Origin: a virus
Reading direction: 5' to 3' (one strand)
Virus record (IMG/VR): IMGVR_UViG_3300027792_000010
DNA: 64,000 bases
Program-made: the position numbers and the translations under genes
The notes under the pieces: model-generated
Databases searched by the model: none
The model's input: the letters and a program-made list of their open reading frames with translations, nothing else
Told to the model about the DNA's origin: nothing
Shown here: one piece after another, positions 3,608 through 58,844 of the stretch
Position numbering within the stretch: the stretch's first letter is position 1
Layout: each line of letters opens with the position of its first letter

Positions 3608-3629
3608 AATGACCCCCTAATAAAAAAAA

Positions 3630-3732
3630 TACGCCCGGAGTGACTCGAACACTCGACCCATAGCTTCTCTGACAGTCCTACTAACGACTGCCCGAGAAGG
3701 CTATTGCTCTAATCCAACTGAGCTACGGACGC
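3630..3732 (-). tRNA. tRNA-Arg(UCU) with a 28-nt insertion in the anticodon loop; no encoded CCA
   Basis: GCGTCCG acceptor, GCTC/GAGC D-arm, ATAGC-CTTCT[28 nt]AA-GCTAT anticodon arm, GAGTG-TTCGAGT-CACTC T-arm. Confidence 0.8.
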
Positions 3733-3738
3733 ATAATT

Positions 3739-3813
3739 TGGAGCGAGGTGCGGGAGTCAAACCCGCCAGATTCACCTTGGAAGGGTGACGCATAATCGAT
3801 CTGCCTACCCCGC
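3739..3813 (-). tRNA. tRNA-Gly(UCC) with atypical D- and T-loops
   Basis: GCGGGGT/ACCTCGC-T-CCA acceptor; TCACC-CTTCCAA-GGTGA anticodon arm. Confidence 0.85.
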
Positions 3814-3821
3814 ATAATTAT

Positions 3822-3850
3822 AATATACTATTTGGTATTCTAACTTTAAA
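3822..3850 (-). promoter_or_regulatory. Internal promoter TTTAAA-N17-TATATT upstream of tRNA-Gly(UCC) and tRNA-Arg(UCU)
   Basis: 17-nt spacing; contains the recurring CCAAATAG-TATATT motif. Confidence 0.5.
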
Positions 3851-4444: not shown

Positions 4445-4521
4445 TGGTGGGCTGTGAGGGACTTGAACCCCCGATCTTCTCGTTATGAGCGAGCTTCTTT
4501 AACCAACTAAGATAACAGCCC
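4445..4521 (-). tRNA. tRNA with CAU anticodon, probably Ile2 (reads AUA)
   Basis: GGGCTGT/ACAGCCC-A-CCA acceptor, CTCG-CTCATAA-CGAG anticodon arm; not initiator-like; AUA codons in the upstream leader support Ile2. Confidence 0.85.
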
Positions 4522-4686: not shown

Positions 4687-4721
4687 GAAGTCTTTGTAAT
4701 GATATTATCATCCCCGTCAGG
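4673..4721 (-). promoter_or_regulatory. Antiterminator hairpin CCTGAC-GGGG : CCCC-T-GTCAGG, mutually exclusive with the terminator
   Basis: 10-bp pairing whose 3' strand is the terminator 5' strand and whose 5' strand contains the leader TGA; encloses an ATGAT-AAT-ATCAT hairpin. Confidence 0.75.
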
Positions 4722-4785
4722 TTGGCTTTAGCCTTCCTTCTCCTTCTCTACCCTCTATACCTATGGTAGCTGGGATGTAAAACAT
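4717..4785 (-). CDS. Putative attenuator leader peptide MFYIPATIGIEGREGEGRLKPT (22 aa)
   Basis: AAGGAAAG SD upstream of ATG; codons 8-18 are ATA GGT ATA GAG GGT AGA GAA GGA GAA GGA AGG. Confidence 0.75.
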   Translation of the reverse strand: MFYIPATIGIEGREGEGRLKPT

Positions 4786-4870: not shown

Positions 4871-4899
4871 AATATACCATTTTGAGATATAAAGATCAA
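4871..4899 (-). promoter_or_regulatory. Sigma70-type promoter TTGATC-N17-TATATT with extended -10 TG, driving the leader and tRNA operon
   Basis: Exact 17-nt spacer; TGG precedes the -10 box. Confidence 0.7.
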
Positions 4900-8651: not shown

Positions 8652-9207
8652 TTTCTCTTATAGGTTTGACCTGTAGATAAGTCGTTTTGCAACCTATCTT
8701 TGTTATGTACCTTCCGTATACATTAGAATCATCTATCAACATATCTATCTTATGCTCTTTACACATCTGTGCTTTAGTCTCATCCCAAACCTCCTGGTCC
8801 ATCCAAGGATTACCTTTTTCATCAAAATGTACTCTTACATCTTTTTTATTTACATGGAAATCCGTTATAGAGAGGAGATGGTCCCACTCCATACCAATTT
8901 CACGTAGCTTCTCTATGAGCTTCGGGGTTATCTTTGCTCCTGTGATGATATAAACGGTATGCCCTCTGCTTCTCAATCTTATGCTGAACTTCGAGAAGAA
9001 CTTAGGTTTGGCATCGATTACTCCATGAATATCGAGTCCTATCTTGAGAGGTTCTACAGACTCTTCTATTATACCGGGTTCCATACCTATATCCCATATT
9101 CTTTTCTTTGTAACTGCAAATTCTTTTTCTAAACAATAGATTTCGAAAAGGGCATTTGCTGCGTTAGCGTCACTTAAAGCTTTTTTAATTATATCAAAGT
9201 TTGCCAT
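8617..9207 (-). CDS. HAD-superfamily hydrolase-like protein
   Basis: GLDIHGVID (DxD variant), ITG motif II, K..MCK and MLIDD motif IV. Confidence 0.6.
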   Translation of the reverse strand: MANFDIIKKALSDANAANALFEIYCLEKEFAVTKKRIWDIGMEPGIIEESVEPLKIGLDIHGVIDAKPKFFSKFSIRLRSRGHTVYIITGAKITPKLIEKLREIGMEWDHLLSITDFHVNKKDVRVHFDEKGNPWMDQEVWDETKAQMCKEHKIDMLIDDSNVYGRYITKIGCKTTYLQVKPIRESDTNGRYKSIP

Positions 9208-11116
9208 TCAGAGCCTGCTCTTTCAGATTGTAGTACCCACGAGTCAGATACCAACAATTTAAACTCTCACGTAAATCGAACCCAAAAGCTCTGCGAGTCA
9301 CAGCGAGTACTGGAGGGGCTTGGATACGCTTAGCTACTGCCATGCCTTTAAACAGCTTATACCAGTGTTCTATATCATCTGTGAAAGCTTTTGCTGTAGG
9401 GAATAGCTTGTATACATCCATCCCTTCAGGAACTTTCAACTTATTATTGATTGTACCATTCAGATACCAGTTCAAATTGTCTTCTGGAGTCTTCCGATAC
9501 CAGGACTCTACCCAAGTGTAGAATAGTCTGCTGTGATACCAGTATACGAGAGGATCTCCCTTACCATCATCTACGCTCTGGTTATTCGACAGTTCTGCTG
9601 AAGCAACTACAGTGAAAGCCTCTTCAGGGATAACTGGATAAGTCTTGTTCAAATATTCTCCCAGTTCGTATACCATAGGCTTTCTAAGGTCACCAAGAGC
9701 TGCGAGGAATCCCGCTACATCCCCGTAAAGGGTGGCATAACCTACGGTACCCTCATCCTTATTCCCGTTATTCGTAAAAACACCACCCCAAGCGCTTGAA
9801 AGTGCCGAAAGGATTCGGCTCGAACGATCTCGGGCCTGTACATTCTCCATATGTGTAGGAGTGAGGTTCAGGGTTTTTTTCTCCCACAAAGAGTCACAGT
9901 CAGAATGATAAGGTATAACATAATCAGTATGCATCATTGTTATCTTTTTGAAACGTTTTAGCTCTAAACCATCAATCTGTTTTTTAGTTAGATTTACAGA
10001 ATCTTCTATAGGAATGCTGGTATAGTAGCATTCTATATTCTTTGCTAATTTTCTTGCTATGCTTATCGTAGTCTTTGAATTGTACTTCGAAGGCATGTTA
10101 ACCAGAAGAAGATTCTCCGGTCCTACCACCTGAGCATATAGCGAGGCTGCTACACATGAGTCTATTCCACCCGAGGCACCGATAACAACTCTCTTAGTCC
10201 CGCAGGCTTCCAGATATTTGCCTATGCCATACTTGAGAGCTTCTGCTACTTCGGCTATATCAGATTCGGGAAGGTTACACACCTCTCCAGGAAACATTTG
10301 CTTTGAATAAGTACACCACTCAACATACATCATATGCTCTTTGAACATAGGTGCTTGAGCAATGATTTTACCAGTCTCATCATACACTACCGAAGAACCA
10401 TCAAAAGTATAAATAGTTTTTCCATTATTCTGTATGCCTACAGCATTCACATATATGATAGGCATACCCAAGTATTTGGCATGTCTTTCACCAAATACCC
10501 TGTTTCTGCTGTTGTTTTTACCTATGGTATAAGGCGAACAGCTGATGTTTATCATCAAATCTGCTTCATTCTCTCTGTAGCATTCCATAGGGTTGATGGG
10601 ATAATCGTCATCCCACCCATCTTCACAGATAGTAAGGCCAACTTTGGTGTCCTTGATATTTTGTGGGGTAAAGTATTTCCTTGTTTTAATATCCGACACT
10701 TTAACCTCATATCCTAAAGCAGGTCTGAAATGACGAGGTTCTTCAAACTCTCGATAGTTAGGGAGAAGGGTCTTTATGTAGTATCGAACTGTCCTGTTTG
10801 TTGCACATATTAAAACATTACGTATGATAGATCTTCCATCTGTGTGCTTGATACCCCAATCTACATCTATACTCCCAAAGATGATTGTAATATCATCCGA
10901 AAGAGCTATTACATCATTGTTGTAATCCATACAGTCTTTGAGGAAAGATTCTTCTTCCCACATATCTCCAAGGAGATATCCAGGTATCATTAGTTCTGGG
11001 AATACTACAATATCTGCGTGATTGGCTTTAGCCGTCGATACATACTCCATGACTTTTTTGAAGTTTTTGGAGGGATCTGCAGGGATAATTTCTACTTGTG
11101 CTAATGCTATTTTCAT
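9194..11116 (-). CDS. nadE: Glutamine-dependent NAD+ synthetase
   Basis: N-terminal nitrilase domain (VVFPEL, YIKTLLP, LTICED) plus synthetase domain (SGGIDS, ENVQAR, GYATLYGD, SAEL, KRIQAPP). Confidence 0.95.
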   Translation of the reverse strand: MKIALAQVEIIPADPSKNFKKVMEYVSTAKANHADIVVFPELMIPGYLLGDMWEEESFLKDCMDYNNDVIALSDDITIIFGSIDVDWGIKHTDGRSIIRNVLICATNRTVRYYIKTLLPNYREFEEPRHFRPALGYEVKVSDIKTRKYFTPQNIKDTKVGLTICEDGWDDDYPINPMECYRENEADLMINISCSPYTIGKNNSRNRVFGERHAKYLGMPIIYVNAVGIQNNGKTIYTFDGSSVVYDETGKIIAQAPMFKEHMMYVEWCTYSKQMFPGEVCNLPESDIAEVAEALKYGIGKYLEACGTKRVVIGASGGIDSCVAASLYAQVVGPENLLLVNMPSKYNSKTTISIARKLAKNIECYYTSIPIEDSVNLTKKQIDGLELKRFKKITMMHTDYVIPYHSDCDSLWEKKTLNLTPTHMENVQARDRSSRILSALSSAWGGVFTNNGNKDEGTVGYATLYGDVAGFLAALGDLRKPMVYELGEYLNKTYPVIPEEAFTVVASAELSNNQSVDDGKGDPLVYWYHSRLFYTWVESWYRKTPEDNLNWYLNGTINNKLKVPEGMDVYKLFPTAKAFTDDIEHWYKLFKGMAVAKRIQAPPVLAVTRRAFGFDLRESLNCWYLTRGYYNLKEQALNGKL

Positions 11117-11122
11117 AAATAC

Positions 11123-12325
11123 TTACTCCGCTATGTGCTTTGCGTAGTTAAGGAATATAAGGTCTTTACACTGTGCCTTCATAGGATCATCGCTGAGTTT
11201 GCAGACAGGACGACCATTGGCTCTGACTATTTTTATGATCTGATTTAAGGCTTTATGTTCTGGTATAGATGGTATATGATTCGAAAGAAAAGTTCCAATA
11301 CCATGCGACACATTTAGGATATGACCAAACTTAGAACTCAGGTCAAAAGCCTTGGTAAAAGTCAAGTTGTCCGAGAATAGCAGAGTTTTATCAGTAGGAT
11401 CAATACCCTCTCTGCTGTAGGCTCTGAGACGCTTCTCGGCCCACTGAAAAGGGTCTCCTGAGTCGTGTCTTTGACCTGTATACTGTATCATAAGCTCTTT
11501 TGTGAAATCTCGGTCCCATTTATTGCTGCCGAGGGTGTCTGTTAGGGCAATACCAAGCCACCCACGGTAGAATTCGATCCAGTCCTCAAGGGCTTTCTTC
11601 TGAGAATCTTCAAGATGGTATAGAGCTTGATAAAACATGGGAAATTCATGAGCCAAGGTACCCACAGCCTTCAATCCGTGAGTTTTAGCAAAAAGCATAT
11701 TAGATGTGCCAACGAGTTGAGTAGGAAAATATCCTTTCAGTTGTTTAACCATCCACCCCTGAAATTCTTGGCATAGTCTGCGTCGTGTCCCGAATTCTGA
11801 GAAAAGAAAGCGCACTTTAGGATTCTGCTCAAGAACCTTCAGGAAATCTTCTATCTTCTTGGATAAGTCTGCTTTTGCCGTATCTACAATTTTTTGAAAC
11901 CCCTGTTCATACTTCTTTCTGAAATAAAGCTCCGAGATGGTATACATCATAGGCATCTCCCAGAGCGAAACTTCTTCTATAGGCCCATCGAAGCATATTT
12001 CAATGCCTGGATTTGTATCGATCTTTTTGATTTGTACTTGTCGGGGATCAAAATGAAACTTTGCAAGAAAATTCACGAGGTAGTCTTGAGTTACCTTCGT
12101 ATTCTCGAATAGCCACTTCTGTTCATCCCTCTGCAGGGTGACATCCGACATAGCTTCAATTTGTTCACACAGGTCATTGTAGATAGGTCGAAGGTCTACC
12201 GAGGTGTCACGACACTTGTAGGCATAGGTAGCGGGGGTCCCACGGAACTTATCCCAGAAGATACATCCCATGTGAAATTTATACACATCATCATCGAGGT
12301 GACTTGTGAAGATCGCATTATTCAT
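11123..12325 (-). CDS. pncB: Nicotinate phosphoribosyltransferase
   Basis: LDDDVYKFHM, EFGTRRR, GTSN, GTLAHE, ALTDT, RHDSGDP, KLSDDPMKAQC motifs. Confidence 0.9.
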   Translation of the reverse strand: MNNAIFTSHLDDDVYKFHMGCIFWDKFRGTPATYAYKCRDTSVDLRPIYNDLCEQIEAMSDVTLQRDEQKWLFENTKVTQDYLVNFLAKFHFDPRQVQIKKIDTNPGIEICFDGPIEEVSLWEMPMMYTISELYFRKKYEQGFQKIVDTAKADLSKKIEDFLKVLEQNPKVRFLFSEFGTRRRLCQEFQGWMVKQLKGYFPTQLVGTSNMLFAKTHGLKAVGTLAHEFPMFYQALYHLEDSQKKALEDWIEFYRGWLGIALTDTLGSNKWDRDFTKELMIQYTGQRHDSGDPFQWAEKRLRAYSREGIDPTDKTLLFSDNLTFTKAFDLSSKFGHILNVSHGIGTFLSNHIPSIPEHKALNQIIKIVRANGRPVCKLSDDPMKAQCKDLIFLNYAKHIAE

Positions 12326-12537: not shown

Positions 12538-13452
12538 TTATGGTTGAAAATCTTTCTTTTCCAAAGCACTTAAAATTAACTGTATTTTAGCATCTATATC
12601 TTTTACAGAAATGTATTCATTTTGCTGATTTTTGGAAGAATCAGTTGAATAATGTTCTTCTAAAATTTCTGTAAGAAGCTTTTTTAAAGCTCCTTCTTGA
12701 GGTTGAGGAGGAAGAGAACATTTTCTTGATAGCTCCGTTACATAATCCATTCTTTTCTGAAATTCTTTATCGAATCTATCAAAATCACCCCACTCTCCAA
12801 CACGCATAACTTTACACTCCTCTTTACATCTCATTAGATCTATATCCCCTGTGGTTAGGATTTGATCTAATTGATCCAATAATCTAAGAGTATGATAAGC
12901 CATTTTTATATCATACCCATATTTCTCTATTATGGCTTTTCTATCTTCCGTCTCAGGATTTCTTTGTCTTATTCTATGCATTTGCCCATTAGCGTAACCT
13001 TTGAAGGAATGAAAAGTTTTCATAGATAAAAATAGTCTTCTGTTATCTCTAAGATACCACCCCATCTTAGTACCTACAGTAACTAGCTCTCTTCTTACAA
13101 ATAGACATTCAATTAGGTTGGGGGAGCCTTTTAGTCCAGCATGTACAAAAAATTCTATAAGAGAGATCCATTCTGCTTCAAAGGGTTTATCTCCTATTAT
13201 AGTCTTTTTTCCTTTTAACTCTTTTCTTTTGAATTCTGGGAGGTTGTCATACCCTAGTATAAATCCGTAATTCTGAGGATATAGGTGTTCGTGTTTTGGC
13301 AGAACTATAGCGGTAATATCATAATCACTCTTATCTGTTTGACATCCGTAGGCATGAGATCCTACTATGGTCTCTAACATGAGATTATCTACAAGCCACT
13401 GCTCATTTTTTTGAAACTTTCCGTTTTGAGCAAACCACTGTGTATAATTCAT
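12538..13452 (-). CDS. Pol-beta-superfamily nucleotidyltransferase (RlaP / T4 NrdC.11-like)
   Basis: GSHAYG..T.KSDYD signature, GSPNLIE, helical C-terminus KMAYHTLRLL. Confidence 0.75.
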   Translation of the reverse strand: MNYTQWFAQNGKFQKNEQWLVDNLMLETIVGSHAYGCQTDKSDYDITAIVLPKHEHLYPQNYGFILGYDNLPEFKRKELKGKKTIIGDKPFEAEWISLIEFFVHAGLKGSPNLIECLFVRRELVTVGTKMGWYLRDNRRLFLSMKTFHSFKGYANGQMHRIRQRNPETEDRKAIIEKYGYDIKMAYHTLRLLDQLDQILTTGDIDLMRCKEECKVMRVGEWGDFDRFDKEFQKRMDYVTELSRKCSLPPQPQEGALKKLLTEILEEHYSTDSSKNQQNEYISVKDIDAKIQLILSALEKKDFQP

Positions 13453-25815: not shown

Positions 25816-26343
25816 TTATTTATTTTCTTCATGTCTTGTATTACCAGACCTTAAATGGTCATAGAAGAAGTTATCGTTTAGGAATCGTATAGTATCTACA
25901 TAATCACAGAACCGTTTATTGAAACTTGAACCTTTCACAGACCACACCTCTACATTTTTACCCTGCCCTTTTAAGTGTTTGCACAAATCTATGAAATCAC
26001 CATCCCCGCTCATAAGTACCCACTTATCAAACTCATTTATACGTCTCATACAATCTACAGCTATAGCCATATCTTGGTCCGTGCCTGTATAACAGACGCT
26101 TCCGTCAGCTTTGGTTCCTTTTATGGCTTTCTTTATTATCAGATTGTAACCTAATGAGTGTAGAAAGTTTTCAAACTTTTTACTTTCTGCGTCAGGGGTC
26201 CTGATAATATAGGCGCACATATCTACGATCTGTGATTCGTTTGCTTTAAAATGCTGAGCCAACTTCAAAAAATCGATTCGTTTCTGTAAGTCTTTTGCTG
26301 AAAAAAATAAATTCTGAACATCTATCTGAATATAGGTTCTCAT
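25816..26343 (-). CDS. NYN-domain (LabA/DUF88, PIN-like) protein
   Basis: YIQIDVQN, TDQDMAIAVD, VLMSGDGDF, GKNVEV. Confidence 0.85.
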   Translation of the reverse strand: MRTYIQIDVQNLFFSAKDLQKRIDFLKLAQHFKANESQIVDMCAYIIRTPDAESKKFENFLHSLGYNLIIKKAIKGTKADGSVCYTGTDQDMAIAVDCMRRINEFDKWVLMSGDGDFIDLCKHLKGQGKNVEVWSVKGSSFNKRFCDYVDTIRFLNDNFFYDHLRSGNTRHEENK

Positions 26344-39954: not shown

Positions 39955-40566
39955 TTAAAAGATATACTTTCGATCTACTTTGACGATTATGTACTCTCCC
40001 TCTTTGTAGGTAGAAAACTTCATACCATCTGAGAAAGCCCGCCCAGCATTAACTTCAAGTACTACAACTTCATCACCTTCAAGAGTTGCAAACTTTTTAG
40101 CAAAGTCCTCCGCCATTTCCGCGGTCTCATAGAGCTTTATATATTTCTTCGTATGGCTCTTCAAACCGCTTTCTTTCATACGTTCTACAAGATTCTTCAA
40201 TGTTCCGAAATAAAGGGTTTGAGGCGGTTGTACGTACTTTACGATTTTATATTTGATAAGGTCTTCTCCATTTATGAGAATTTTTTGATCCCTATCTTTG
40301 AAGTATAGCTCTATAATATGATTTCGATTTATATAGTATAGCTCTGGAAAGCGCCACTTCAAGAAAGCAACAATAGCATCTATTTTAACAAATCCATTAG
40401 CGTCTGTACTTATTTGATAGTCACCTACCTTAATAGTCTCTGCTTCCATATCAGATGCATCACGTAGTATATCAATAACAGATAAGAGAGCAACTTTAAG
40501 ATCATTAACATTTTTGTAGAGTGTTGCAGGTGACTTATTAAAAGTTTTTTTTGCAGGCATAAACAT
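39955..40566 (-). CDS. Tpt1/KptA (RNA 2'-phosphotransferase)-like protein with degenerate active site
   Basis: DANGFVKID, PPQTLYFGT, GLK..YIKL, VVLEVNA, G.KF pattern. Confidence 0.65.
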   Translation of the reverse strand: MFMPAKKTFNKSPATLYKNVNDLKVALLSVIDILRDASDMEAETIKVGDYQISTDANGFVKIDAIVAFLKWRFPELYYINRNHIIELYFKDRDQKILINGEDLIKYKIVKYVQPPQTLYFGTLKNLVERMKESGLKSHTKKYIKLYETAEMAEDFAKKFATLEGDEVVVLEVNAGRAFSDGMKFSTYKEGEYIIVKVDRKYIF

Positions 40567-45124: not shown

Positions 45125-45607
45125 ATGAGAGTAGAACCATTATTTATACGGTATGCCAATGGATCAGCTAGTACCGAGAGTATTATTAAGAGCTATTTAT
45201 CCATAGTTGAGGATGGTAATTCTAAGGAAATAGCAGAAGCCGCTCTTATCAGCATTCCTGACCTTACGATGTTTAGAAGAGACTTTAGGAATTGTATAGA
45301 TGATTTAATAGATAATGGAATTAATAATCAGTTCATAAATTATGTAGATAGCTATATGAAGCCATCGTTAGAGGAGTATATAGAAGGAAGTAATGCATCA
45401 AGAACGGGAGAAAAGAGAAGGGTAATAATAAAGGCAGAGGATACTCCTTGGATAGAGGCTATGGTATGTTACAATATGTCCTTATATATAAGGGTTTATG
45501 GGATTTCTGAGATAAAACATTGTCCTAATTGTGGTAACTTTTTTAGCCATAAGGGAAAATACGCTAAATATTGTAGTGATATTTGTAAGGGAAATGCAAG
45601 TAAATGA
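45125..45607 (+). CDS. Protein with C-terminal CGNR-like zinc finger
   Basis: CPNCGNFF...AKYCSDIC. Confidence 0.6.
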   Translation: MRVEPLFIRYANGSASTESIIKSYLSIVEDGNSKEIAEAALISIPDLTMFRRDFRNCIDDLIDNGINNQFINYVDSYMKPSLEEYIEGSNASRTGEKRRVIIKAEDTPWIEAMVCYNMSLYIRVYGISEIKHCPNCGNFFSHKGKYAKYCSDICKGNASK

Positions 45608-46125
45608 GTATAGCATTGTTAGCTTTTGGGTTACAAAAGGCATACTTACACCCCCAGGGAAGCAGGTATCTTGGAGCTAAAGCTGAGATATACAAGGTTA
45701 GGATACTTGATTACTTCCGAACTTTAAATCGTAATGATATTAAAGTATACTTAATAAGGGAGGTTCATCAAGTTGATGATAAATTTTACAGTAGAACAAA
45801 AACACATTCTATTGCTGGTACTAAAGATGTAGAAATACCAGAGGAGTATAAGCCTTATATTCATTTTATAGTAAATACAAGCAGATACAATGCTTTTTAC
45901 AAAACAGCTCTGGATTCAGAGCTATATAAGATTAAACCTGAAAAGGTGTTCCTATTAGGATTTGAGACCCATACTAATGTTCTTTTTACAGCGGAAGAGC
46001 TAAGAAATAGAGACTATGACGTTACCGTTATAGAGCCATTAGTTATGGCGGAAGATGAATACCTACACTCAATAGCACTTACTATGATGGTTGATTTTTT
46101 ATCTACAGACATTAAACAGGAGTAA
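45604..46125 (+). CDS. Isochorismatase/nicotinamidase-fold protein lacking the catalytic triad
   Basis: ALLAFGLQ, HS..GT, SRYNAFY.T.L, LLGFETHTNV, GYD-like RDYDVTVI. Confidence 0.7.
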   Translation: MSIALLAFGLQKAYLHPQGSRYLGAKAEIYKVRILDYFRTLNRNDIKVYLIREVHQVDDKFYSRTKTHSIAGTKDVEIPEEYKPYIHFIVNTSRYNAFYKTALDSELYKIKPEKVFLLGFETHTNVLFTAEELRNRDYDVTVIEPLVMAEDEYLHSIALTMMVDFLSTDIKQE

Positions 46126-54942: not shown

Positions 54943-55590
54943 ATGCCCAAGAATTCTATAGAGTTAGATGTTAATGAAATCTTACAGGTACCTATAGACT
55001 CTATTGGGCCTTCTTTTAGTGATAATAAATTAGAATCACAAACAGAGGCTCTTAAGATCTTTGAAAATGTGGAACCGCCAATAGTAGAGGTTAATAACCC
55101 TGCTAATCTTATAAGTGTGAATTTAGTAAATACCTCGATTCAAAAGATTATAGAAGATCCTACTAAAAATGATATATTGGTAGAATCTATAAAAAATGAT
55201 GATCCTGGTATTACGATACTTAATAATATAATGGTTGAGTTAGCTGAAGAGATAGCCTATATGAAAGCTTGGAGGAATAATAACTTCCAGATTGATAAGG
55301 ATGTAACTTCGGAGATTGCTGAGAAAAGAATAAAAGCACTTAATAACCTTACTATGACGGTAATACAAAAAGCAAAGATAATGAATTCTGGTAATAAAGG
55401 AAAAATAGATTTCTATAGTGAAAACTTTTCAAAGATATTTGAATATTTTTTGAAAGTTGTTCAAGATACTTTTCAAAAAGTAGGTATACCGGAGCAATAC
55501 AGGAATATCTACTTATCAGAATTAGCTAAACAGTTAGATGGATTCGAAAAAACAGCAGAAAAAATATACAGTGGTAAGAAGAAAATATGA
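54943..55590 (+). CDS. Possible terminase small subunit
   Basis: Helical 215-aa protein overlapping the large terminase start; positional inference only. Confidence 0.4.
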   Translation: MPKNSIELDVNEILQVPIDSIGPSFSDNKLESQTEALKIFENVEPPIVEVNNPANLISVNLVNTSIQKIIEDPTKNDILVESIKNDDPGITILNNIMVELAEEIAYMKAWRNNNFQIDKDVTSEIAEKRIKALNNLTMTVIQKAKIMNSGNKGKIDFYSENFSKIFEYFLKVVQDTFQKVGIPEQYRNIYLSELAKQLDGFEKTAEKIYSGKKKI

Positions 55591-58500
55591 GCATAGCTGA
55601 ATTATGTGCTAATCTAATCTCTAAGGATGGTCTGGACATCGATAAGATTCTACATAAGAATATTATCGAGTTTGTAACTGCTCCTTGGGGATTGGGGCTC
55701 GGGACTCTTCCTGGTGTTCCTTCGTTATACCCATCTCAACGTTTTATACTAAAGGTATACTACGGGTTATCATTAGATAGGGGTAGTAATAGGGATATAA
55801 TAATAAAAGACCAATTCAATGAGCTGGAACTTTACAGATTTAATGAATACGAATATTTTAAGTTTTTGTATGAACAGGGTAGAATAAATGGAGCAGAAGA
55901 AGGAGTGCCCTATACAGATTTAACTTTAGTATGTGGTAGAAGATCTGGCAAATGTGTATGCGCTGGGACAATAGTTAATACTGATAAGGGTTTAATAGAG
56001 ATACAAAATTTAGGAGATCCTAAGGGTCCTGAGTATCAACCGTTAAAAATAGGTGTAGCTCAAGAGGGTGATAAAAAATCTGAATCTTCTTATTTTTATA
56101 ACGGAGGTGAGAGAGATACTATAAAAATAAGAAGCTTCTATGGTTTTGAAAATGAGGGGACACCTAACCATAGAATTAAAATATTGGATACAGACGGAGT
56201 AATAAAATGGAAGTATTTAGAAGATATAGAAGTAGGTGATATAGTATGTATTCATAGAAAATCAGATATGTGGTCTAAAGAATACGTAAATACTGAATAT
56301 TTAAGCAAAAAGTCACAAGGTCGTAAAGACAACATAAACTTACCTAAAGTTTTTGACAGTACTTGGGCAAAACTATTAGGTGTTCTATCTGGTGATGGTA
56401 CCTGGGCACTTAAAGGAGGAATACAAGTAACTGTAGGACCTTATAAAGAATGGTTAGACAAAGTTATAGATATTTTTAAAGAAACAGTAGGTGAGCCTAT
56501 CATAAAGGTAGATAAAAGAAGAGAGGTGTATAGCGTAAATTATTATTCTGTTGTAGTAAGAGAGTTTTTTAATAATATAGGTTATAATGTGGATATAAAA
56601 AGTGATACAAAAAGAATTCCATGGGTTATTATGCAATCACCAAAGCCAGTAGTAGCTTCTTTTCTAAGCGGTCTTTTTGAAACAGACGGTTGTATAGAAG
56701 CTAAAAAAAGTACTGTGTCTTTTTCGACAGCTAGCTTAAAATTAGCACAGGAAGTCCAGATATTACTGTTAAACTTCGGGATAGTCAGCAGATTAGTAGG
56801 TAAAATAAATAAAAGGTTTAATAAAACATACTATCATATATATACTTTAGGCTATAGGTCACTAAAAATATTTCATGATGAAATAGGTTTTATAAGTGAT
56901 AGGAAAAGAAAATTATTAGAATCCCGTATCAGTAAAGGATATAAGGGTAATAAAAGTAATATAGAGTCGATTCCTTATCAAAAGCAATGGTGTATAAATT
57001 TAAGAGAGTCTATTTATAAGGGCAAATCTAATGGTATAATTCCTAAAGATAAACCAGAACAAAGAAGAATGCTTTTAAGAGGTGCTATAGGTAATGTAAT
57101 AAAGACTAACAGTATAGAAGACCTCACATATCCTAGATTAGAAAAAATTATTTTAGTATCAAAAGAATTAGACGCTGACTCAGAGATAATTAAACATTTT
57201 GAAGAATTACAATATGCTAATTATTTTTTTGATAAAATTACAACAGTCGGTAAAAGCAGAAGTATGGTATACGATTTAAACGTACCTGATGGAGAATCTT
57301 TTGTAGCTAACGGCATGACTAATCATAATACTATGATCACTTCATGTATCATAGCCTATGAGACTTATAAACTTCTGAACATATATTGCCCACAAGAATA
57401 CTATGGTATAATGCCTGAGTCTGAGATCAGGATAACATGTGTTGCTACAAGTAAAGAGACAGCTTCTGAACTGTTTAATGCCGTTACAGGTCATATAGAA
57501 AGGTCTGAGTTTTTCAGAAGGTATAGGAATAAACCTACACAACAGAGAATGTTTCTTAGAACCCAAAGAGATATTGATAAATACGGAGCCTCGAAGAGAG
57601 CCTCTCTTCAGATACACGTTGCTCCTTGTAGTGCTAAAGGTCTTCGTGGGCACAATAATATTATAGTAGCTTTGGATGAGATGGCCTTTTTCTTTGAGGA
57701 TGAGATGAAAAAGGGAAAGATAGTTGCAAAGAGTAGCGATAGAAATGATAGGGCTATTTATACAGCTGTGACACCATCTATTGCTAAATTTAAGGGTAAA
57801 GATGGTAAGCCTCATGGAAAAGTTATAGCTATATCATCACCAAATACAAAATCTGGTAAGTTTTATGAACTATATGAATTCGCTTTTAACGAAGAAAATA
57901 CTAAATCTTTGATGATACAGGCTCCTACCTGGGAGATAGACAGTAATCTATCTTCAGAGTTTTTAAAGAAAGAACATGTGTCAAATAGAACAACGTTTTA
58001 TACTGAGTATGGAGCACAATTTAGTGACCAAGTAAAAGCCTGGATAGAAGATGCTGTTATTTTAAGACAGAATATTATCTCAGGGTTAAAGTATAGAGAT
58101 AGGTCATCACTTAGAGTACCTCATTATGCTGGAGTAGACGTAGGATTAAAAGGTGATGGAACTGCAGTCTGTATATGTCATTATGTTTCAGAATTAGTAG
58201 GTGGTGCCAGAGAAGATTTTTTGGAGGTAGACTGCTGCGATATAAGATATGCAGAGTTAGAAAAAAAAGCTAATTTTACCCCACAAGATATAGCAGATTG
58301 GCTGATAGATTATACAAAGAGATTTAATATAATAAAGGGTTTATTGGACCAATACTATGGAATGGGTATTATACCACTATTAGAAGATAAGGGTATAAAA
58401 CAGTATGAATACCGGGTATTCACTGAGGGTTTAAATTCTATAATATATCAAAACCTTCTTACTCATTTTATATCCTCAGCATTAAGACTGCCTGAGGATG

Positions 58501-58844
58501 AGAGAATAATAGATGGTAGAGTAGATAAAGATTCAGACTTAGTAAAAGAGCTATTAACGTTACAGGCGACACAAAGAAGTAAATATATAGTTAGCGTAGA
58601 AGCTCCAGATAGGTCAGGGGCACATGACGACATGAGCGATGCCTTAGCTCGTGCGGTATTTGTTGCTACCGAATTCAAGAGAAAAGGATACGGTGTAAAA
58701 TTGATTTCTGGAGGTAATTCTGGAGCCAAAGCATTTAAAGTATTAAGAGGCATCGAGATGAGAAAAGCAGAGTTATTGAGACCTACTCGTGGAAGAGTTT
58801 CCACAGGTAGGAGAAACTTCTCATCTGTGATGAGATCTTACTAA
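55587..58844 (+). CDS. terL: Terminase large subunit containing an intein
   Basis: Walker A CGRRSGK|T, Walker B ALDE, AISSP, EYGAQF, nuclease GVDVG, HDD.SDA. Confidence 0.92.
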   Translation: MSIAELCANLISKDGLDIDKILHKNIIEFVTAPWGLGLGTLPGVPSLYPSQRFILKVYYGLSLDRGSNRDIIIKDQFNELELYRFNEYEYFKFLYEQGRINGAEEGVPYTDLTLVCGRRSGKCVCAGTIVNTDKGLIEIQNLGDPKGPEYQPLKIGVAQEGDKKSESSYFYNGGERDTIKIRSFYGFENEGTPNHRIKILDTDGVIKWKYLEDIEVGDIVCIHRKSDMWSKEYVNTEYLSKKSQGRKDNINLPKVFDSTWAKLLGVLSGDGTWALKGGIQVTVGPYKEWLDKVIDIFKETVGEPIIKVDKRREVYSVNYYSVVVREFFNNIGYNVDIKSDTKRIPWVIMQSPKPVVASFLSGLFETDGCIEAKKSTVSFSTASLKLAQEVQILLLNFGIVSRLVGKINKRFNKTYYHIYTLGYRSLKIFHDEIGFISDRKRKLLESRISKGYKGNKSNIESIPYQKQWCINLRESIYKGKSNGIIPKDKPEQRRMLLRGAIGNVIKTNSIEDLTYPRLEKIILVSKELDADSEIIKHFEELQYANYFFDKITTVGKSRSMVYDLNVPDGESFVANGMTNHNTMITSCIIAYETYKLLNIYCPQEYYGIMPESEIRITCVATSKETASELFNAVTGHIERSEFFRRYRNKPTQQRMFLRTQRDIDKYGASKRASLQIHVAPCSAKGLRGHNNIIVALDEMAFFFEDEMKKGKIVAKSSDRNDRAIYTAVTPSIAKFKGKDGKPHGKVIAISSPNTKSGKFYELYEFAFNEENTKSLMIQAPTWEIDSNLSSEFLKKEHVSNRTTFYTEYGAQFSDQVKAWIEDAVILRQNIISGLKYRDRSSLRVPHYAGVDVGLKGDGTAVCICHYVSELVGGAREDFLEVDCCDIRYAELEKKANFTPQDIADWLIDYTKRFNIIKGLLDQYYGMGIIPLLEDKGIKQYEYRVFTEGLNSIIYQNLLTHFISSALRLPEDERIIDGRVDKDSDLVKELLTLQATQRSKYIVSVEAPDRSGAHDDMSDALARAVFVATEFKRKGYGVKLISGGNSGAKAFKVLRGIEMRKAELLRPTRGRVSTGRRNFSSVMRSY
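55953..57329 (+). mobile_element. Intein (459 aa) with LAGLIDADG homing endonuclease
   Basis: Starts at Cys (CVCAGT), block B NEGTPNHRI, LLGVLSGDG and FLSGLFETDG motifs, ends VYDL.V..F.ANG..HN followed by Thr. Confidence 0.92.

Follow-up and report, generated by a model that had tools for sequence, protein, structure and literature searches.

A 28-nt hairpin insert in a phage tRNA-Arg(UCU) gene as a candidate mini-intron with RNase III-type cut-site geometry

The phage DNA analysed here, a 64-kb stretch referred to as the window, contains a 103-nt tRNA gene (positions 3630-3732, minus strand) in which a 28-nt hairpin interrupts the anticodon loop. Textbooks assign tRNA splicing by proteins to archaea and eukaryotes and describe the tRNA introns of bacteria and phages as self-splicing group I ribozymes. 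Does such a gene yield a working tRNA, and if so, how would the insert be removed? A preliminary description of the locus had read the gene as a tRNA-Arg(UCU) with a 28-nt insertion, and this is borne out by the Rfam tRNA model, by ARAGORN and by an intact ortholog at the equivalent site in relatives. RF00005 spans the gene end to end with 51.3 bits (gathering score 29; model positions 1-71) and places a 31-nt insertion state in the anticodon loop. ARAGORN misses the gene by default; run with introns allowed, a check proposed in that description, it finds the gene with a 28-nt intron, though labelled Leu(UAG), which indicates that the splice register alone is ambiguous, with UCU, UCG, UAG and GAG all possible. 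Removal of the insert between U36 and A37 restores the 7-nt loop CUUCUAA (CU-UCU-AA), as had been claimed, and ARAGORN calls the joined exons tRNA-Arg(tct). The tRNA body is of class I, with a 5-nt variable loop, A20, C35, U36, discriminator A73 and the D loop AGUUGGAUUA; A20, C35, U36 and A73 are identity elements for ArgRS. The class I body, A20 and A73 do not agree with a bacterial Leu tRNA, in which a long variable arm would be expected. Judged by these sequence features, the gene is tRNA-Arg(UCU), not Leu. Its 5' exon (3695-3732, minus; tRNA positions 1-36, 38 nt) ends in C32 U33 U34 C35 U36, with the anticodon UCU at 3695-3697, and its 3' exon (3630-3666, minus; positions 37-73, 37 nt) runs from A37 A38 to A73, with no encoded CCA.

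Two related phages (L005 and L006) carry an uninterrupted tRNA-Arg(TCT) at the equivalent site, between Gly(UCC) and a 93-aa gene. Demand for this tRNA is high, AGA and AGG making up 70% of the Arg codons in 26 long window ORFs, and the interrupted copy is the one Arg(UCU) gene in the window and L135 combined. The gene is the last of a tRNA operon on the minus strand, in the order promoter-like site, 22-codon leader ORF, Glu(UUC), CAU tRNA, Gly(GCC), 111-aa ORF, Gly(UCC) and tRNA-Arg(UCU). By consensus match only, a TG-extended promoter-like site (TTGATC-17-TATATT, 4871-4899) precedes the leader and the operon, and a second one (TTTAAA-17-TATATT, 3822-3850) lies just upstream of the uninterrupted tRNA-Gly(UCC) (3739-3813) and tRNA-Arg. 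The leader ORF (4717-4785) holds AGA, AGG, ATA, GGT, GGA, GAA and GAG codons, so that both Arg codons mentioned for it in the preliminary description are present. At the other end of the operon, a U8 tract (3622-3629) directly follows A73 and is terminator-like together with the acceptor and T arm; a terminator-like site at 3652-3631 plus the T run is predicted at the tRNA-Arg 3' end. Other window tRNAs likewise lack an encoded CCA, which fits the phage's CCA-adding enzyme (L135 16010-17350, with PolyA_pol, RNA-binding and HD domains), whose gene lies about 5.4-6.7 kb beyond the window's start. Within the same operon, the CAU tRNA (4445-4521, minus) occupies the site of tRNA-Ile(UAU) in L005, L006 and L134, and the leader contains two ATA codons; on both grounds it is probably an Ile2-type (lysidine) tRNA rather than Met.

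The insert itself (3667-3694, minus) comprises nine stem positions, an 8-nt loop (GUUAGUAG) and a terminal AG that pairs with C35 and U36. In the predicted precursor fold (-44.1 kcal/mol, z = -4.6, 0 of 200 shuffles equally stable) the acceptor and D stems are kept, and the anticodon arm becomes one long helix. From the base, this helix consists of the 5-bp anticodon stem, a bulged C32, U33:A38, U34:A37, C35 paired with insert G28, U36 paired with insert A27, and then the nine insert-insert positions, which include one G.A mismatch and one G.U pair and are capped by the loop. The total is about 18 bp (5 + 4 + 9), and the UCU anticodon is fully buried. The stem had been described as 14 bp, one more than the 13 stacked positions counted inward from U33:A38 (12 pairs and the G.A mismatch), while the mismatch, the 8-nt loop and the pairing with the anticodon stand. 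In a bulge-helix-bulge, two 3-nt bulges flank a 4-bp helix, with a splice site in each bulge. The fold contains no such motif, its helix being continuous apart from the 1-nt C32 bulge and the one mismatch, and the earlier remark that the insert does not fit a strict bulge-helix-bulge holds. So does the remark that it is far too small for a group I intron, with 28 nt and no Rfam intron or ribozyme match even at E values up to 10. Two other identities were rejected. A mobile DNA repeat or MITE disagrees with the single occurrence of the insert sequence in the window, with the lack of a target duplication and with a 3' end tailored to each anticodon, and a transcription terminator within the tRNA gene disagrees with a hairpin that has no U tract behind it.

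Homologues of the 111-aa ORF of the cluster occur in other metagenomes, on contigs that keep the gene order. An interrupted Arg(UCU) gene is found in three independent metagenomes, namely in the window, in a Logan assembly (L008) and in a JGI metagenome contig recovered by pattern scan (L134). An alignment of the three copies has variable columns at 4 of 75 exon positions and 6 of 28 insert positions; pairing is complete (100%) in the acceptor, D and T stems, and 98% of all helix cells remain paired. Two compensatory double changes occur, one in anticodon-stem pair 28:42 (U-A to C-G) and one in the first insert pair (C-G to A-U), and the G.A mismatch of the window's insert is G-C in both other copies. 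The comparison of orthologs proposed in the preliminary description thus gives a conserved insert position, a preserved stem and one compensatory insert pair, in three sequences; with so few sequences the covariation control is weak, the observed score being equalled in 49 of 500 shuffles. After splicing, the anticodon arm of the L008 and L134 copies would be identical to that of 22 of the 120 intronless IMG/VR phage Arg(UCU) genes among the matches listed, and the window gene differs from this shared arm solely by the compensated 28:42 pair. Both L008 and L134 encode the CCA that is absent from the window copy. Conserved exons combined with a faster-evolving but structure-constrained insert would be expected of a functional tRNA and not of a decaying gene.

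The interrupted state is rare. Megablast with a 6-kb query returned no close relative among GenBank phages, and distant blastn hits were to unrelated tRNAs only. In IMG/VR we found no relative with the neighbouring 420-aa protein and none with the insert pattern; a pattern scan for Arg(UCU) genes there gave over 120 matches without an interruption and no match that holds an insert of 12-42 nt, and ARAGORN -i on 120 listed loci gave mostly artefacts (long variable arms, fused neighbours) and no hairpin mini-intron. About 130 tRNA genes of more distant relatives (L138-L148) contain no inserts. At one IMG/VR locus (L118 10452-10554, minus), the anticodon loop of a tRNA-like gene of 103 nt is enlarged by 28 nt; the hairpin there is not stacked on the anticodon stem, an architecture unlike that of the window's insert.

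The same design recurs in other tRNAs. A hairpin mini-intron was taken as 26-29 nt long, directly 3' of the anticodon, coaxial with the anticodon stem, and ending in two bases that pair with the last two exon bases upstream of the 5' cut; such inserts are present in genes of the window, L008, L134, L215 and L229. The tRNA-Gly(UCC) of L008 has a 27-nt hairpin at 36/37, and shares about 92% exon identity with the uninterrupted Gly(UCC) of the window, a clean presence/absence of the insert at this site. The tRNA-Val(UAC) of L134 has another 27-nt hairpin, and the Val(UAC) of the window's phage is uninterrupted. Although the stem sequences of the Arg, Gly and Val inserts are unrelated, each 3' end consists of two bases complementary to the tRNA's own positions 35 and 36. 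As a separate observation, L008, with its two interrupted tRNAs, also carries an HNH_3 endonuclease gene (375-920) within the tRNA cluster, about where other relatives have tRNA-Ile.

Bacterial examples were sought by pattern scans of one genome per prokaryotic species. A first, stricter GTDB scan gave no matches, and a looser one gave two further Arg(UCU) genes with such a hairpin, of 27 nt in L215 and of 28 nt in L229; many other bacterial matches were rejected as normal tRNAs with a second T-loop-like sequence, and archaeal matches, which do carry inserts, were set aside. L215 lies in a 7.4-Mb Chitinophagaceae MAG (G001) among ordinary chromosomal genes (SDR, topoisomerase IB, cNMP-binding regulators, ADH). 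It is the sole Arg(UCU) gene among the 54 distinct tRNA genes recovered from this MAG, a set that is incomplete in that no Val(UAC) was found, and on this tally the genome appears to depend on an interrupted Arg(UCU) gene. The MAG encodes RNase III, RtcB and an Rnl-type ligase adjoining a tRNA array, and it gave no match to EndA (PF01974). Its island at G001:C7:76079-81249 groups the Rnl-type RNA ligase, seven tRNA genes and RtcB, and a further tRNA of the same genome (L270, G001:C2:298314-298433) is 121 nt long because its anticodon arm contains about 46 inserted nt. A different type of insert follows A38, where the anticodon loop meets the 3' strand of the anticodon stem; it is a palindromic, GC-rich hairpin of 19-20 nt (CCTGCCTGCCGGCAGGCAGG) and occurs in tRNA-Arg(UCU)-like genes of eight species of Chitinophagales, Sphingobacteriales and other Bacteroidota (L157, L164-L167, L170, L195, L228); in L157 a normal Arg(UCU) gene is located about 300 bp from it.

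The geometry of the two insert ends is a feature absent from the preliminary description. In all seven interrupted genes the pairing register is identical: measured across a plain helix, 2 bp separate the bond after position 36 from the bond before position 37, with about 9 bp of helix on either side of the cut region. G.U pairs are present in every one of the insert helices, as would fit an RNA structure of the tRNA strand better than a palindrome in the DNA. RNase III leaves products with 2-nt 3' overhangs and 5'-phosphate/3'-OH ends. Cuts 2 bp apart would leave 2-nt 3' overhangs on both the tRNA body and the released hairpin and would thus match the geometry of RNase III products, an offset that arises in part because U33 and U34 can pair with A38 and A37 in these particular loops. 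Among RNase III substrates, an 18-bp helix that contains one bulge and one mismatch would rank as short.

A plausible mechanism starts from the precursor helix seen in the sequence, in which the insert prolongs the anticodon stem to about 18 continuous bp and C32 is a bulge. A dsRNA-specific endonuclease, with host RNase III as the prime candidate, would cut this helix after U36 and before A37, giving 5'-phosphate and 3'-OH ends and 2-nt 3' overhangs. Resealing of the anticodon loop would then fall to an ATP-dependent RNA ligase such as Rnl1 or Rnl2; this type is proposed because 5'-phosphate/3'-OH ends are what Rnl-type ligases join. Finally, the phage's own CCA-adding enzyme would complete the 3' end, a step invoked because the gene ends at A73 followed by U8, with CCA not encoded. 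We put the odds at about even (roughly 0.5) that the insert is a genuine mini-intron of a functional tRNA-Arg(UCU), cut by a dsRNA endonuclease and resealed by an RNA ligase. That the insert is removed in some way to give a working tRNA-Arg(UCU) seems probable from the comparisons above, and the chance that the excising nuclease is RNase III we would place a little short of even. The 27-28-nt hairpin mini-introns form a class unable to splice themselves. The earlier suggestion of a protein-spliced micro-intron fares well against a pseudogene when read from the sequence comparisons, because the exons are conserved, the fast-evolving insert keeps its helix, relatives differ in its presence, and no intact Arg(UCU) was found in the bacterial genome; the suggested alternative of a decoy or protected precursor seems the less likely one.

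No gene for RNase III, Rnl, RtcB or Pnkp lies within the 64-kb window, which belongs to a 190-kb contig. Two window proteins had been pointed to as linked to RNA repair. The RlaP-like nucleotidyltransferase is indeed present (12538-13452, minus; PF10127 2.8e-11, phrog_388 5.9e-44). The Tpt1-like protein exists as an ORF (39955-40566, minus) with a threshold-passing Pfam match (PF01885, 34.9 bits) but is a weak pointer to a yeast-type pathway because conserved Tpt1 motifs are lacking. The Tpt1/KptA family has a conserved catalytic Arg-His-Arg-Arg tetrad. Compared with Clostridium thermocellum Tpt1 (6E3A), the ORF has LRD for LRH, FGT for HGT and K for the last Arg, and nothing in it aligned to the R-x-x-x-GHS segment; the protein may be an inactive or repurposed NAD-binding fold. 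With these motifs substituted or absent, the ORF was discarded as support for a yeast-type ligation. Tpt1 would also be unnecessary in the proposed mechanism, since RNase III-type cuts with their 5'-phosphate/3'-OH ends create no 2'-phosphate. The window additionally contains an NAD synthase (NadE with a CN-hydrolase domain), a nicotinate phosphoribosyltransferase and an isochorismatase-family ORF (9194-12325, minus, and 45604-46125, plus); the last may be a nicotinamidase, a guess from its family only, and together the three may form a phage NAD salvage set.

A first alternative keeps splicing and changes the enzymes: another dedicated endonuclease of phage or host would cut the intron to 2',3'-cyclic phosphate and 5'-OH ends, and Pnkp with Rnl, or RtcB, would rejoin them. 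A possible nuclease is the NYN (PIN-like RNase) domain protein at 25816-26343 (minus; PF01936 6.8e-24, PDB 2QIP 1.4e-12), which has the only predicted ribonuclease domain found in the window, and the window also contains many ORFs without a family match. However, neither genomic context nor co-occurrence ties any nuclease to the inserts. The loops of the Gly and Val inserts are nearly alike (ACGAGUA and ACGAGUG) and that of L229 has ACGAG, so that the shared ACGAGU could be a protein recognition motif, yet the loop of the Arg insert is unlike those of Gly and Val. The constant size of 27-28 nt hints at a ruler that starts at the loop. The 2-bp offset that all seven genes share in a plain helix, in contrast, is a specific RNase III signature, and the chromosomal bacterial example argues for a housekeeping enzyme. 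On balance, we regard a dedicated endonuclease of this kind as unlikely.

We hold it equally unlikely that the insert is simply retained, the gene being disabled or its RNA serving a non-decoding role as a decoy for an anticodon nuclease or ArgRS, or as a stored inactive precursor. The fully buried anticodon would be expected in that case, as would the rarity of the state (no interrupted Arg(UCU) in the IMG/VR pattern scan). No splicing enzyme was identified in the window, and L005 and L006 manage with an uninterrupted gene. Retention is opposed by exons more conserved than the insert and by the compensatory change in the anticodon stem. It would also leave the phage, as far as the window and L135 are concerned, with no other Arg(UCU) gene for the 70% of its Arg codons that are AGA or AGG, and the bacterial genome would lose the gene on which it appears to depend. 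The missing CCA, which L008 and L134 encode, would suit a disabled gene, but CCA is equally missing from other window tRNAs and the phage has a CCA-adding enzyme.

Excision by RNase III without rejoining, such that the nicked tRNA or its halves act as such or the tRNA is switched off, is quite improbable. It has a precedent in rRNA intervening sequences, which RNase III excises without ligation while the rRNA still works (PMC4990558), and the acceptor, D and T arms could hold the halves together. A nick at U36/A37, however, should impair both decoding and the recognition of C35 and U36 by ArgRS, and a self-destroying gene would not keep conserved exons. Least probable is a known intron type, either a bulge-helix-bulge cut by EndA or a self-splicing ribozyme. 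The anticodon-loop site is near the canonical 37/38, and pairing between insert and anticodon is a trait of archaeal and eukaryal precursors too. Against this reading, the fold lacks both the 3-nt bulges and the central helix of 4 bp, EndA (PF01974) has no match among the roughly 70 window ORFs or in G001, the phage has a replisome, sigma factor and muramidase of bacterial type, and 28 nt without an Rfam family match is far below any known ribozyme.

The mini-intron with RNase III-type geometry can be set against several known systems. The only published precedent that we found is the 'enigmatic' introns in tRNA genes of Lak megaphages (Devoto et al. 2019, PMC6784885), which differ in size and shape; full-text literature searches returned no description of hairpin-type tRNA introns from either phages or bacteria. 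Like the window's insert, the Lak introns are located in the anticodon loop of phage tRNAs, are not group I, are conserved between samples, are present or absent between relatives and have no mechanism assigned to them (PMC6784885). The one Lak size taken from Table S6, for the tRNA-Tyr of A1, is about 93 nt (intron 37-129), and a Lak tRNA-Thr intron was predicted possibly to encode a tRNA itself (PMC6784885). With the Lak size known from this one example, the inserts described here differ as 27-28-nt plain hairpins, coaxial with the anticodon stem and with cuts offset by 2 bp. The intervening sequences of bacterial 23S and 16S rRNA are likewise extra helices in a stable RNA, patchy among relatives and removed by cutting within the stem (PMC4990558), but they are about 100-400 nt long with longer stems and their pieces are not rejoined, whereas a break next to the anticodon of a tRNA would call for a ligase. 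For the sealing step, a parallel exists in T4, where Rnl1 reseals broken anticodon loops: in the Pnkp/Rnl1 repair of PrrC-cleaved tRNA-Lys a phage ligase closes the anticodon loop (PMC3400036). That reaction repairs host-defence damage and does not remove an encoded insert, and a ligase for the window's phage is only proposed. The introns of archaea and eukaryotes resemble the insert in being short, non-catalytic, placed beside the anticodon, paired with it, and dependent on an endonuclease and a ligase. They differ in their bulge-helix-bulge, the 37/38 site, EndA/TSEN cleavage to cyclic phosphate/5'-OH ends, and joining by RtcB or Trl1 plus Tpt1; the window's insert has no bulge-helix-bulge, is placed at 36/37 in a bacterial setting in which EndA was not found, and has predicted 5'-phosphate/3'-OH ends. 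Group I introns in bacterial, plastid and phage tRNAs share the anticodon-loop location and, in bacteria and phages, the patchy distribution, but are self-splicing ribozymes of roughly 200 nt or more with a P3-P9 core and a G-binding site, as compared with 28 nt.

A hairpin that cannot splice itself, in the main Arg decoder of a phage and in the apparent only AGA decoder of a bacterial genome, would imply an undescribed cut-and-rejoin pathway assembled from common enzymes. We tentatively propose, as possible but still short of likely, a third tRNA splicing route in bacteria and phages, in which RNase III excises a hairpin whose single helix presents the two splice sites together, the loop is rejoined by an Rnl-type ligase, and the inserts are gained and lost as discrete units. 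If this is true, phage and bacterial RNA ligases, so far assigned to repair only, would gain a possible routine substrate, and the inserts may tie the supply of a decoder that serves 70% of the phage's Arg codons to RNA-repair enzymes, or may keep the anticodon loop out of reach of anticodon nucleases for as long as the tRNA is not required. For annotation, such tRNA genes are missed or misnamed, as seen in the default ARAGORN skip and the Leu call with introns allowed. The locus offers natural controls in close relatives with and without the insert for two tRNAs (Arg and Gly). New here are these with/without pairs, the compensatory insert pair, the codon-demand argument, and the chromosomal bacterial example with its enzyme inventory.

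Other genetic elements in the window are recorded as minor observations. A 1085-aa ORF (55587-58844, plus) contains an intein bearing a LAGLIDADG domain. About 1 kb downstream of the tRNA operon there is a TnpB-like ORF (1467-2582, minus; Cas12f1-like TNB domain, 2.3e-17), and the Logan assembly of the same sample ends just before this ORF, as a repeated element would predict.
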